NCBI RefSeq assembly: GCF_050920415.1
Contig: NZ_CP169309.1
Strand: one strand, 5' to 3'
From: Escherichia coli
GTDB lineage: Bacteria > Pseudomonadota > Gammaproteobacteria > Enterobacterales > Enterobacteriaceae
Length of the DNA stretch: 64,000 nt
Part shown: positions 26,896 to 29,577 of the stretch, in pieces
How positions within the stretch are numbered: the stretch's first letter is position 1
Layout: the number at the start of each line of letters is the position of its first letter
The notes under the pieces: model-generated
What the model was told of the DNA's origin: nothing
The model's database searches: none
Seen by the model: the letters and a program-made list of their open reading frames with translations, nothing else
Position numbers and translations under genes: made by a program

Positions 26896-26913
26896 ATCCT
26901 ACACCTGTAAGAA
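26896..26913. promoter_or_regulatory. EvgA box upstream of ydeP (ATCCTACA-CC-TGTAAGAA)
   Basis: 18-bp inverted repeat matching the EvgA consensus TTCYTACA-N2-TGTARGAA, about 250 bp upstream of the ydeP start. Confidence 0.55.
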
Positions 26914-27161
26914 AATCCGCGCACAATTGAAGTCAGAGTCTTATTTTATATATTGAAAAGTATGTTAACTTAAAGACTATGAGAGATGATGCTTAACTTA
27001 TCGCATTTATACTATTCTGTTATTTGACGATAATGAGTTAAAAATAGAATGAGAGTAGCCCCCTACTCTCATATATCCAAATGGCCGATAAGCCCATTAT
27101 ATATACTGCGCATCATCGCTATTACAAATCCTAATAATTCATTTCCACACAGGATAAGCTG

Positions 27162-29441
27162 ATGAAGAAAAAAATTGAATCCTACCAGGGAGCTGCCGGT
27201 GGTTGGGGGGCTGTCAAATCTGTAGCGAATGCAGTCCGTAAGCAGATGGATATACGCCAGGAAGTGATTGCCATGTTTGACATGAATAAGCCAGAAGGCT
27301 TTGACTGTCCAGGATGTGCATGGCCAGATCCTAAGCACAGCGCGTCATTCGACATTTGTGAAAACGGCGCAAAAGCAATCGCCTGGGAAGTCACCGATAA
27401 GCAGGTGAATGCCTCTTTTTTCGCTGAGAATACGGTTCAATCATTACTTACCTGGGGAGATCACGAACTCGAGGCTGCGGGGCGTCTCACTCAACCTTTG
27501 AAATATGATGCCGTCAGCGACTGTTACCAGCCATTAAGCTGGCAACAAGCTTTCGACGAAATTGGCGCACGTCTTCAAAGTTATAGTGATCCAAATCAGG
27601 TTGAATTCTATACTTCGGGCCGCACTTCCAATGAAGCTGCCTTTCTTTATCAGCTTTTTGCCCGTGAATACGGTACCAATAACTTTCCCGACTGCTCAAA
27701 CATGTGCCATGAACCGACCAGCGTAGGTTTGGCAGCGAGTATCGGCGTGGGTAAAGGGACCGTGTTACTGGAAGACTTTGAGAAATGCGATTTAGTAATT
27801 TGCATTGGGCATAACCCTGGTACAAACCACCCTCGCATGCTGACTTCGTTGCGCGCTTTAGTGAAACGGGGAGCGAAAATGATTGCCATCAATCCTCTGC
27901 AGGAGCGTGGCCTGGAGCGATTTACCGCACCACAGAACCCGTTTGAAATGCTGACGAACTCCGAGACTCAATTGGCTAGTGCTTACTATAATGTGCGCAT
28001 TGGTGGCGATATGGCGTTGCTAAAGGGGATGATGCGCCTGTTAATTGAGCGCGATGATGCTGCAAGTGCTGCGGGTCGGCCCTCATTGCTGGATGACGAA
28101 TTCATTCAAACGCATACCGTCGGCTTTGACGAGCTACGCCGTGACGTTCTCAATTCCGAGTGGAAAGATATCGAACGTATTTCTGGACTAAGTCAGACAC
28201 AAATCGCCGAACTTGCTGATGCATATGCCGCTGCCGAACGAACCATTATCTGTTACGGAATGGGGATCACTCAGCACGAACATGGTACCCAGAACGTACA
28301 GCAACTTGTCAATCTGCTGTTGATGAAAGGTAACATTGGCAAGCCTGGTGCGGGTATCTGCCCACTACGTGGTCACTCTAATGTACAGGGCGACCGAACC
28401 GTCGGTATTACCGAGAAACCGTCTGCCGAGTTTCTGGCTCGCCTGGGTGAGCGCTATGGCTTCACCCCACCTCATGCACCTGGACATGCTGCAATCGCCA
28501 GCATGCAAGCAATATGTACGGGGCAAGCTCGAGCATTGATCTGCATGGGGGGCAACTTTGCACTGGCAATGCCAGATCGGGAAGCGAGCGCTGTACCGTT
28601 AACGCAATTAGATCTGGCGGTACACGTTGCCACAAAGCTTAACCGCTCACATCTGCTGACTGCACGGCATAGCTATATTCTGCCGGTTCTGGGACGTAGC
28701 GAGATTGACATGCAAAAAAGCGGTGCGCAGGCGGTAACCGTTGAGGATTCAATGTCAATGATTCATGCCTCGCGTGGCGTGTTAAAACCCGCAGGTGTCA
28801 TGCTGAAATCAGAGTGTGCTGTGGTCGCGGGAATCGCGCAGGCAGCGCTCCCCCAGAGCGTGGTGGCCTGGGAGCATCTGGTGGAAGATTATGATCGCAT
28901 TCGCAATGACATTGAAGCTGTGCTGCCAGAGTTCGCCGACTATAACCAGCGCATCCGCCATCCTGGTGGTTTTCACCTGATAAACGCAGCTGCTGAAAGG
29001 CGCTGGCTGACGTCGTCAGGTAAGGCTAATTTTATTACCAGTAAAGGGTTGTTAGAAGATCCCTCTTCGGCGTTTAACAGTAAGCTGGTCATGGCGACAG
29101 TGCGCAGTCACGATCAGTACAATACGACGATTTATGGTATGGATGACCGCTATCGAGGGGTATTCGGTCAACGAGATGTGGTCTTCATGAGTGCTAAACA
29201 AGCTAAAGTTTGCGGTGTAAAAAACGGCGAAAGAGTTAATCTTATTGCGCTTACGCCAGACGGTAAGCGCAGCTCACGCCGCATGGATAGATTAAAAGTG
29301 GTCATTTACCCTATGGCTGACCGCTCACTGGTGACCTATTTTCCAGAATCGAATCACATGCTAACACTTGATAACCACGATCCATTAAGTGGCATTCCTG
29401 GCTATAAAAGTATTCCGGTTGAATTAGAACCATCAAATTAA
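27162..29441 (+). CDS. ydeP: YdeP, acid-resistance molybdopterin oxidoreductase (formate dehydrogenase-like)
   Basis: 759 aa; N-terminal Cys cluster; formate-dehydrogenase-family sequence; expected position next to safA-ydeO. Confidence 0.9.
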
Positions 29442-29559
29442 TTCGCCTCCTCATTTCTTCTGCTGTCATCCGCACAGCAGAAGAATTCCTCATTGACCAT
29501 TGTCGCGCAATTTACTCACATGTGCTAAATTAAACTGCTCGCTATAAGATATATACCTC

Positions 29560-29577
29560 TGCCTACAGCTGTAAGAA
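29560..29577. promoter_or_regulatory. EvgA box upstream of safA-ydeO (TGCCTACA-GC-TGTAAGAA)
   Basis: Second 18-bp inverted repeat of the same form, about 110 bp upstream of safA. Confidence 0.55.

Follow-up and report, generated by a model that had tools for sequence, protein, structure and literature searches.

The window, i.e., the 64-kb stretch of Escherichia coli DNA that was analysed, contains on its plus strand the genes ydeP, safA and ydeO, and both ydeP and safA are preceded by an 18-bp inverted repeat. The span from the first repeat to the second (26896-29577) encloses the entire ydeP gene (27162-29441). The features of the locus are the following:

26896-26913, plus strand: EvgA box of the ydeP promoter, ATCCTACACCTGTAAGAA, exact core match, 22.0 bits with an independent position weight matrix (PWM)
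26914-26946, plus strand: conserved block from the ydeP box to the -35 region, candidate secondary protein contacts
26963-26971, plus strand: predicted extended -10 of the ydeP promoter, TGTTAACTT (TG-n-TAACTT), predicted start at ~26979
27049-27072, plus strand: perfect hairpin in the ydeP 5' leader, 10-bp stem and 4-nt loop, -13.4 kcal/mol, z = -4.55
27162-29441, plus strand: ydeP, intact open reading frame of 759 aa, full-length match to NCBIfam equivalog NF007406 (1822 bits)
29455-29485, plus strand: strong hairpin followed by a weak U-tract, 14 nt past the stop codon of ydeP, -17.5 kcal/mol, z = -5.6
29560-29577, plus strand: EvgA box of the safA-ydeO promoter, TGCCTACAGCTGTAAGAA, exact core match, 23.1 bits, top PWM score of the window
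29578-29610, plus strand: block conserved 3' of the safA box, containing CA (29586-29587) and TCCTATT (29603-29609)
29627-29635, plus strand: predicted extended -10 of the safA promoter, TGTTATATT, predicted start at ~29642
29689-29886, plus strand: safA, intact open reading frame of 65 aa, annotated as safA in the near-identical RefSeq record
29962-30723, plus strand: ydeO, intact open reading frame of 253 aa, match to equivalog NF007407 (595 bits)

The identities of the three genes were taken from the RefSeq annotation of a near-identical record and from the NCBIfam equivalogs. Compared to K-12, ydeP shows 98.8% identity at the amino-acid and 95.7% at the DNA level, and safA carries 3 substitutions. 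A 1-bp deletion in ydeO that is found in the closest RefSeq record is absent from the window. The window also encodes gadBC, with a perfect GAD box upstream of gadB.

Both boxes are located upstream and on the same strand as the gene that follows, at a distance of 249 bp to ydeP and of 112 bp to safA. They match the pattern (T/A)NCCTACA-NN-TGTAAGAA and fit the EvgA consensus TTCYTACA-NN-TGTARGAA, which was rebuilt from K-12 sequence and which we take to be the published one. The repeats are imperfect, with an arm complementarity of 6/8 and a perfect core TACA-NN-TGTA. The claim of the sequence-only reading that an 18-bp inverted repeat is present at both promoters is thereby confirmed, and the two checks proposed with it, a PWM scan and a comparison with K-12, both came out in its favor. 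The same motif is found in K-12 upstream of emrK/evgA, frc, yfdX (two boxes) and yegR, and the PWM was trained on four of these independent sites (emrK/evgA, frc and both yfdX boxes), excluding the window's own boxes. Over ~128,000 positions the safA box ranked first (23.07 bits) and the ydeP box second (22.01 bits), while the best unrelated match in the window reached 8.97 bits, leaving a gap of 13 bits; the top maximum in 100 Markov-1 random control windows was 21.65 bits. Moreover, the exact 14-base core CCTACANNTGTAAGAA occurs 2 times in the 64-kb window compared to 0.00 times in dinucleotide-preserving shuffles (n=100).

The comparison with K-12 revealed positional orthologues of both boxes next to the same genes, in the same position and orientation. 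The safA box is identical at 18/18 positions and the ydeP box at 17/18; the K-12 ydeP box begins with AGCC, position 2 being G in K-12 and T in the window, and T is the commoner base among the alleles sampled. The 20-35 bp 3' of each box are identical between K-12 and the window, whereas the spacer flanking the ydeP box is only ~86% identical, and positions 26898-26932 show 100% identity to K-12 within a 200-bp bin of 84.5%. The ydeQ-ydeP spacer of the window is a rare allele with 80-90% identity to 5310/5329 matching E. coli records, yet a 40-mer with the ydeP box is at least 95% identical in 5308/5322 E. coli records, and a 40-mer with the safA box in all of the E. coli records with a match (5372/5372). 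Furthermore, both box cores are present in 7/7 diverse E. coli loci that were retrieved. Among nine alleles of the ydeP box the half-sites are conserved and most of the variation falls in the 2-bp spacer; the divergent lineage L004 (87% identical) has one substitution in the left half-site, giving CCTACG. This pattern indicates that both boxes are under strong purifying selection, and since the surrounding allele is rare and divergent, their conservation provides a clean natural footprint of the constrained sequence.

Judged from these comparisons, the two boxes are very probably the EvgA operators of the E. coli ydeP and safA-ydeO promoters. The 18-bp inverted repeat was reportedly found at the K-12 ydeP and safA(b1500)-ydeO promoters by Masuda and Church in 2003, and EvgA binding is said to have been studied by Itou, Eguchi and Utsumi in 2009; PMC3720670, PMC8174306 and PMC9496106 cite both studies. 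The boxes are thus already-described EvgA sites, i.e., known and well conserved wiring and nothing new, and the discovery value of re-identifying two of the best-known operators of the EvgAS regulon in another E. coli strain is little. In the literature ydeP is directly regulated by EvgA (PMC8174306, PMC7174508), the safA-ydeO promoter (PMC9496106) and the inverted repeats at yfdX and yfdWUVE (PMC3720670) are bound by EvgA, and PemrK and PyfdX are in use as EvgA reporters (PMC5706723); physical EvgA binding and EvgA-dependent induction have been described for K-12 only, in work that these sources cite. Gene identities, K-12 orthology, the occurrence of the motif elsewhere in the regulon and the literature all agree with the earlier assignment of the locus to the known EvgAS acid-resistance regulon.

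In the proposed mechanism a dimer of phosphorylated EvgA, a response regulator of the NarL/FixJ family, would bind to each of the two 18-bp inverted repeats. The center of the box would lie ~74 bp (-74.5) upstream of the transcription start, and EvgA bound there would activate a sigma-70 promoter with an extended -10 (TGnTAnnTT) but probably without a usable -35, with further protein contacts possibly carried by the conserved 40 bp 3' of each box. Activation would lead to production of YdeP, of the PhoQ connector SafA and of YdeO, a regulator of the AraC type that would then drive gadE and the glutamate-dependent acid-resistance genes. For annotation this means that the strain carries both EvgA-dependent promoters together with intact ydeP, safA and ydeO; as gadBC and its perfect GAD box are found here too, the locus has what is genetically required for extreme acid resistance in exponential phase. 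EvgA binding is not the entire mechanism because induction of ydeP also needs RcsB (PMC7174508).

The sequence-only reading had further stated that the regulatory architecture is confirmed to be intact in this strain. This holds for the boxes and the three target genes, which are conserved, but it is too strong for the circuit as a whole, as evgAS lies outside the window, ~1 Mb away. What the sequence shows is an architecture that is conserved, not one that is working. As a proxy the genome NZ_CP169399.1 was used, a separate assembly that matches 24 kb of the window with 100.0% identity. In this genome evgA and evgS are intact, the other four EvgA boxes are also present, EvgA is identical to K-12 at 204/204 positions and EvgS at 1169/1197, i.e., with 28 differences. 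Some natural EvgS alleles are pH-blind (PMC5706723), and conservation of the network is therefore no guarantee of an acid response. A strain with intact boxes might thus respond to mild acid in a way unlike K-12 through a natural EvgS variant, the wiring being kept and the input changed. Next to the work of Roggiani et al., which is cited in support, the 28 of 1197 EvgS positions that differ from K-12 in this nearest complete genome speak for such a variant; however, none of them is known as inactivating, the pH-blind example MP1 differs at 39 positions, an acid response is present in many non-K-12 groups (PMC5706723), and both boxes are so strongly conserved that the promoters are probably in use. 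Overall we consider an altered EvgS input unlikely, albeit with some weight.

Turning to the promoters that the proposed EvgA operators would serve, a predicted extended -10 of the form TGTTAnnTT is found at +50..+58 after both boxes. At the safA promoter it is conserved among 9 alleles except in the divergent L004, which has TGCTATATT with a single base changed, and at ydeP the hexamer is TAACTT in the window and TAATTT elsewhere. In K-12 the ydeP 5' leader begins at -178 from the ATG (PMC11210196), and projecting this 178-nt leader through the alignment of K-12 with the window places the likely ydeP start at 26979, 8 nt after the -10 hexamer. A simple sigma-70 scan proposed another ydeP promoter, TTGAAG-16-TATATT (26927-26954), which was set aside as the main ydeP promoter because it misfits the 178-nt leader (PMC11210196) and nothing corresponding to it is seen in the collinear promoter of safA, where the extended -10 at +50..+58 does recur. 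In a search of PsafA for a PhoP box, all matches were weak, with 3 mismatches.

The sequence between box and -10 is also shared. The ydeP block carries CA at 26922-26923 (+9/+10) and TCTTATT at 26939-26945 (+26..+32), collinear with the safA promoter, and the downstream modules of ydeP and safA are identical at 36/58 bases. The boxes of K-12 emrKY/evgAS, frc (yfdWUVE), yfdX and yegR have the consensus TTCYTACA-NN-TGTARGAA in common with those of the window, and their promoters keep the same register, with the dinucleotides CA and TC at +9/+10 and +26/+27, respectively, a T at +31 and a hexamer resembling a -10 at +53..+59. Across the six EvgA-dependent promoters the columns +9, +10, +26, +27 and +31 after the box are invariant (P ~1e-4, grouped rotation) and the -10-like hexamer falls at +53..+59, the starts being predicted. 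Outside the invariant columns the promoters differ in sequence, save for the pairs ydeP/safA and frc/yfdX. They also differ in their boxes: the K-12 frc box is a perfect palindrome, unlike the imperfect repeats of the window, yfdX is preceded by two boxes with a separation of 38 bp, and at emrK/evgA one box is common to two divergent promoters.

BvgA is the closest characterized homologue of EvgA and belongs to the same protein family. At its promoters in Bordetella (fhaB, ptx), as at those of EvgA, the core promoter is weak and a high-affinity inverted repeat lies a long way upstream of it; for BvgA it is established that lower-affinity sites are then filled co-operatively as far as -35. The BvgA half-site TTTCCTA is related to TTCCTA-CA of EvgA, whereas a lower-affinity array at EvgA promoters is only suggested by periodic remnants at ~+20 and +42 bp. 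In a test for secondary lower-affinity sites of the BvgA type, spaced at ~21-22 bp intervals from the primary site to -35, the invariant CA lies 20 bp and the TCYTA-like half-site 42 bp past the equivalent box positions, but no full site scores well; full secondary EvgA sites 3' of the boxes were not found consistently, the best candidates agreeing at 8-10/16 positions with inconsistent offsets. The distance of 42 bp between the TCYTA-like half-site and the matching box positions corresponds to four helical turns. As a tentative proposal, EvgA-dependent promoters may be a rigid ~76-bp module rather than an 18-bp box combined with any core promoter. Such a module would comprise the box, CA at +9/+10, the TCYTA-like half-site at +26..+30 and the -10 at +53..+58; the ydeP and safA modules would be duplicated copies, and the remnants would serve as secondary contacts, either of additional EvgA dimers, as for BvgA, or of RcsB. 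The shared register of the six promoters offers a concrete hypothesis of how EvgA, possibly with RcsB, reaches RNA polymerase from -74. An exact scan for the box and its extension in one genome per species gave no evidence of the module outside Escherichia; it returned three loci only, one from a divergent 'E. coli', one on a MAG contig contaminated with E. coli and one on a contig from a gut metagenome, and it under-reports because exact matches were required.

RcsB itself might be the protein behind the conserved sequence. RcsB-type sites such as the RcsAB box and the GAD box are likewise bound by the NarL/FixJ family and have TAAGA/TAGGA-like half-sites, TAAGA/TAGGA being the core of the RcsB-type half-site, and the EvgA half-sites include TAAGA/TAGGA as well. 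Moreover, the block AAGAAAnTCCGC is conserved after both boxes, and acid induction of ydeP is abolished by loss of rcsB even with constitutive EvgS (PMC7174508). The repeats or the adjoining sequence could thus be recognized by another NarL/FixJ-family protein, namely RcsB alone or together with EvgA or GadE, and the conservation would then reflect that protein. However, even when one mismatch was allowed, the RcsB box TNRGANNNNTCYNA was absent from both intergenic regions (26814-27161 and 29442-29688; background 1.3 per kb), the 18-mer recurs at promoters that serve as EvgA reporters, and the boxes are arranged head-to-head with a 2-bp spacer, so that half-site arrangement and spacing differ from the RcsAB box and other RcsB-type sites. 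In the literature no description of an RcsB site at ydeP was found, the requirement being genetic. We regard it as very improbable that the conservation reflects such a protein.

In another reading, ydeP, safA and ydeO would form a single operon transcribed from the upstream box, and the second box would be redundant or vestigial. Some papers do use the wording 'ydeP-safA-ydeO operon' (PMC11052181), and the hairpin after ydeP, with its weak U-tract, makes read-through plausible. Its stem is invariant in 9 alleles and its tail reads UUCCUCAUU; the terminator scan made no call here because the T-run is too short. The hairpin likely represents the 3' end or a leaky terminator between ydeP and the safA promoter. 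Against a single operon, the safA box surpasses the ydeP box in conservation (at least 95% in 5372/5372 records) and is followed by its own near-invariant extended -10 at the same spacing as in ydeP, safA-promoter reporters function alone (bioRxiv 10.64898/2026.05.06.723403), and in other papers safA-ydeO is an operon whose promoter is bound by EvgA (PMC9496106, PMC5706723). We therefore regard a single operon as highly improbable.

Loose scans of the window that allowed 2-3 mismatches were at chance level (5 matches versus 4.5 expected and 4 versus 3.8), and such scans therefore give no support for the boxes, which are discriminated by exact matching and PWM scoring only. That the two matches themselves are due to chance and have no function, as the chance frequency of these degenerate versions might suggest, has a negligible probability in view of the exact core (2 versus 0.00 expected), the PWM gap of 13 bits to the next site, the orthology, the near-universal conservation and the consistent orientation and spacing of both boxes.

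Finally, a scan of the whole window against Rfam returned no families. The ydeP 5' leader contains the perfect hairpin at 27049-27072. Compared to K-12, 5 bp are inserted in the leader of the window and its hairpin is stronger; two substitutions in the window lengthen the stem. The core of the stem, GAGAGTAG/CTACTCT, is shared unchanged by the eight other alleles of the E. coli type that were compared, and in the divergent L004 it is GAGAGTGG with a shorter loop.

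The ydeP-safA-ydeO locus of the window is bordered downstream by ydeN and ydeM, and the same gene annotation is found in the near-identical RefSeq record NZ_CP169399.1 and in K-12. YdeP and YdeO are full-length hits to their NCBIfam equivalog models (1822 and 595 bits, respectively), and ydeP, safA and ydeO are all intact. The sequence-only reading had described paired EvgA boxes of inverted-repeat form at ydeP and safA-ydeO, and both 18-mers were found exactly where it had placed them.

Features of the locus (window positions; +n counts positions downstream of the box end)
25899-26813, plus strand, ydeQ ORF
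26896-26913, plus strand, ydeP box ATCCTACACCTGTAAGAA, 249 bp ahead of the ydeP ATG
26963-26971, plus strand, predicted extended -10 of ydeP TGTTAACTT, exactly +50 to +58 after the box
27049-27072, ydeP 5' leader hairpin, conserved, perfect 10-bp stem in the window (-13.4 kcal/mol, z = -4.55)
27162-29441, plus strand, ydeP ORF
29455-29485, hairpin after ydeP, strong, with a poor U-tract (-17.5 kcal/mol, z = -5.6)
29560-29577, plus strand, safA box TGCCTACAGCTGTAAGAA, 119 bp past the ydeP stop and 112 bp ahead of the safA ATG
29627-29635, plus strand, predicted extended -10 of safA TGTTATATT, exactly +50 to +58 after the box
29689-29886, plus strand, safA ORF
29962-30723, plus strand, ydeO ORF

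Each box is an imperfect inverted repeat in which the arm pairs are complementary at 6/8 positions and the TACA-NN-TGTA core is perfect. The exact 14-base core CCTACANNTGTAAGAA is present in two copies in the window and in none of 100 dinucleotide-preserving shuffles; motif scans of the window allowing two to three mismatches gave counts at chance level and were uninformative. To avoid circularity, the motif was built from K-12 promoters other than these two. Around evgA in K-12 there are four copies of the pattern, one in the emrK-evgA gap, one ahead of frc and two ahead of yfdX; a fifth K-12 copy lies upstream of yegR. PemrK and PyfdX serve as EvgA reporters (PMC5706723), and inverted repeats bound by EvgA were reported for yfdX and yfdWUVE (PMC3720670). 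A weight matrix derived from the four evgA-neighbourhood sites ranked the two boxes first and second in the window with 23.07 and 22.01 bits, compared to 8.97 bits for the next unrelated position; the highest maximum in 100 random windows was 21.65 bits. Compared to K-12, the safA box is identical at 18/18 positions and the ydeP box at 17/18, with T in the window and G in K-12 at position 2, T being the commoner base among the sampled alleles. Both checks proposed with the sequence-only reading, the matrix scan and the comparison with K-12, confirm the boxes and support their identification as the K-12 EvgA sites in another strain, an already known feature. Relative to the gene, the boxes are consistently asymmetric, with CCTAC (TAGG on the other strand) prevailing in the promoter-distal arm and TAAG in the proximal one, in a sample (boxes of the window and of the K-12 loci L003 and L015) too small for statistics.

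What makes the conservation of the boxes informative is the unusual allele of the locus in this strain. From ydeT to ydeO, identity to K-12 and most E. coli is approximately 94%, and of 5329 records only 17 match the ydeQ-ydeP spacer with at least 99% identity, 5310 matching it with 80-90%. For the 40-mers with the ydeP box and the safA box, identity is 95% or more in 5308/5322 and 5372/5372 records, respectively. Among nine ydeP alleles, including one that is only 87-88% identical (NZ_JAATUR010000028.1), box variation falls mostly in the 2-bp spacer (CC, CT, TC), as expected of a site bound by a dimer that leaves its centre uncontacted; the most divergent allele has one left half-site change (CCTACG).

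The rare divergent allele spans window positions 23800-31000. For ydeP DNA, identity to the alleles of K-12, O157 and 536 is 95.7-96.1%, compared to 97.7-98.8% among those three, which suggests that the haplotype is old or was imported from a diverged lineage. Upstream of ydeP lies a complete fimbrial operon (20393-26813: a fimA-like gene, a chaperone, an 883-aa usher, ydeS, ydeR and ydeQ), whereas the K-12 usher gene ydeT is a pseudogene with a truncated N-terminus and strain 536 has lost most of the operon. NZ_JAATUR010000028.1 is labelled E. coli, with a ydeP that shares only 87-88% identity with every E. coli allele. It keeps ydeP-safA-ydeO and both boxes, with a much diverged SafA of 63 aa, and the module is therefore present in a species-level-diverged Escherichia lineage; safA-ydeO was stated to be absent outside E. 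coli (PMC5706723). A K-12-like ydeP-safA with both EvgA boxes also occurs on a 13-kb contig (JARKOR010000108.1) in a MAG that bears the label 'Candidatus Nanosynbacter', where it almost certainly reflects contamination of the bin with E. coli DNA.

In K-12, EvgA is phosphorylated by EvgS when the pH is mildly acidic and is then a direct activator of both ydeP and the safA-ydeO operon, whose products YdeO and SafA activate gadE and PhoQ, respectively (PMC8174306, PMC7174508, PMC9496106, PMC5706723). In the window, mild acid would accordingly lead via phosphorylated EvgA to occupied boxes, switching on ydeP and safA-ydeO through the extended -10 elements, and YdeO and SafA would act on gadE and PhoQ. 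The sequence-only reading had considered this architecture confirmed as intact. This holds for the cis sites and the three target genes; evgAS lies outside the window and an acid response is not confirmable from sequence. NZ_CP169399.1, the closest RefSeq record, is 100.0% identical over 24 kb. It carries a 1336-bp insertion annotated as IS2 that is absent from the window, since the coordinate offset changes between window positions 11403 and 26000, and a frameshifting 1-bp deletion in an A5 run of ydeO (window 30574 region), possibly an assembly error; these differences show that the window is not this assembly. In NZ_CP169399.1 evgA, evgS, emrKY and yfdX-frc-oxc-yfdVE are intact, the four other EvgA boxes are present, EvgA is identical to K-12 (204/204) and EvgS differs at 28/1197 residues. 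A natural EvgS allele can be pH-blind despite a conserved network, as Roggiani et al. showed, and this is not readable from individual residues (PMC5706723). Therefore, the sequence supports a conserved EvgA architecture in this strain and cannot confirm a working acid response. The window also contains gadBC (41611-44701) and, 81 bp upstream of gadB, the perfect 20-bp GAD box TTAGGATTTTGTTATTTAAA (41511-41530), so that an output of the EvgA-YdeO-GadE cascade and its cis element share the window.

Neither promoter has a good -35 ahead of its extended -10. The K-12 ydeP leader is 178 nt long in Gorelik et al. (PMC11210196), which was taken as the annotated start because the evgA and gadA probes of that study begin at known or well-predicted starts. 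It maps to window position 26979, 8 nt past the -10 hexamer, and would place the centre of the ydeP box at about -74.5. A simple promoter scan proposes another hexamer pair for ydeP, which was set aside as its main promoter. Given the hairpin after ydeP and a second promoter that is conserved in its own right, two transcription units, each driven by EvgA and with possible read-through between them, are the more probable arrangement. The 12-bp stem of this hairpin is invariant; in NZ_JAATUR010000028.1 (3078-3108) the loop approximates the reverse complement of its E. coli counterpart (CATCCGC versus ACGGATG), which looks like a loop inversion. In the leader stem, two substitutions relative to K-12 turn an A/A mismatch into T-A and a G-U pair into G-C; on the minus strand a T-run follows this hairpin, giving it a terminator-like look. 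Just past the predicted safA start lie weak PhoP-box-like repeats, TGATTAacgatTTTTAA and, on the minus strand, TGTTTATTTAGCGGATA (29644-29660 and 29664-29680, three mismatches each); PhoP was reported to lower safA promoter activity (2026 preprint, bioRxiv 10.64898/2026.05.06.723403).

Some potential lies only in a register shared downstream of the boxes and in the unexplained RcsB requirement, part of which may be covered already by Masuda & Church 2003 and Itou et al. 2009. RcsB is needed besides EvgA for ydeP induction, even with constitutive EvgS (PMC7174508), and no canonical RcsB box was found in the ydeP or safA promoter. Over the 58 bp after the box the two promoters are collinear, gapless and identical at 36/58 positions, compared to a mean of 14.6 (sd 3.4) and a maximum of 28 in 20,000 random pairs of window segments. 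A box-anchored alignment of six EvgA-dependent promoters (ydeP, safA, emrK, frc, yfdX-proximal and yegR) contains five invariant columns (C/A at +9/+10, T/C at +26/+27 and T at +31), the mean in rotation controls keeping related pairs together being 0.56 (P about 1e-4). A consistently scoring full secondary EvgA site was not found downstream of the boxes in the aligned promoters. At +26 to +30 the element TCYTA repeats the core of the left arm of the box, 42 bp (four helical turns) downstream of it. This recurrence resembles the behaviour of BvgA, a homologue of EvgA, which occupies weaker sites lying between the -35 and a strong site upstream; by analogy, EvgA might make similar secondary contacts downstream of its boxes. 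Moreover, frc and yfdX-proximal both carry CTCTCTGATT at +23 to +32, and a -10-like hexamer lies at +53 to +59 in all six promoters.
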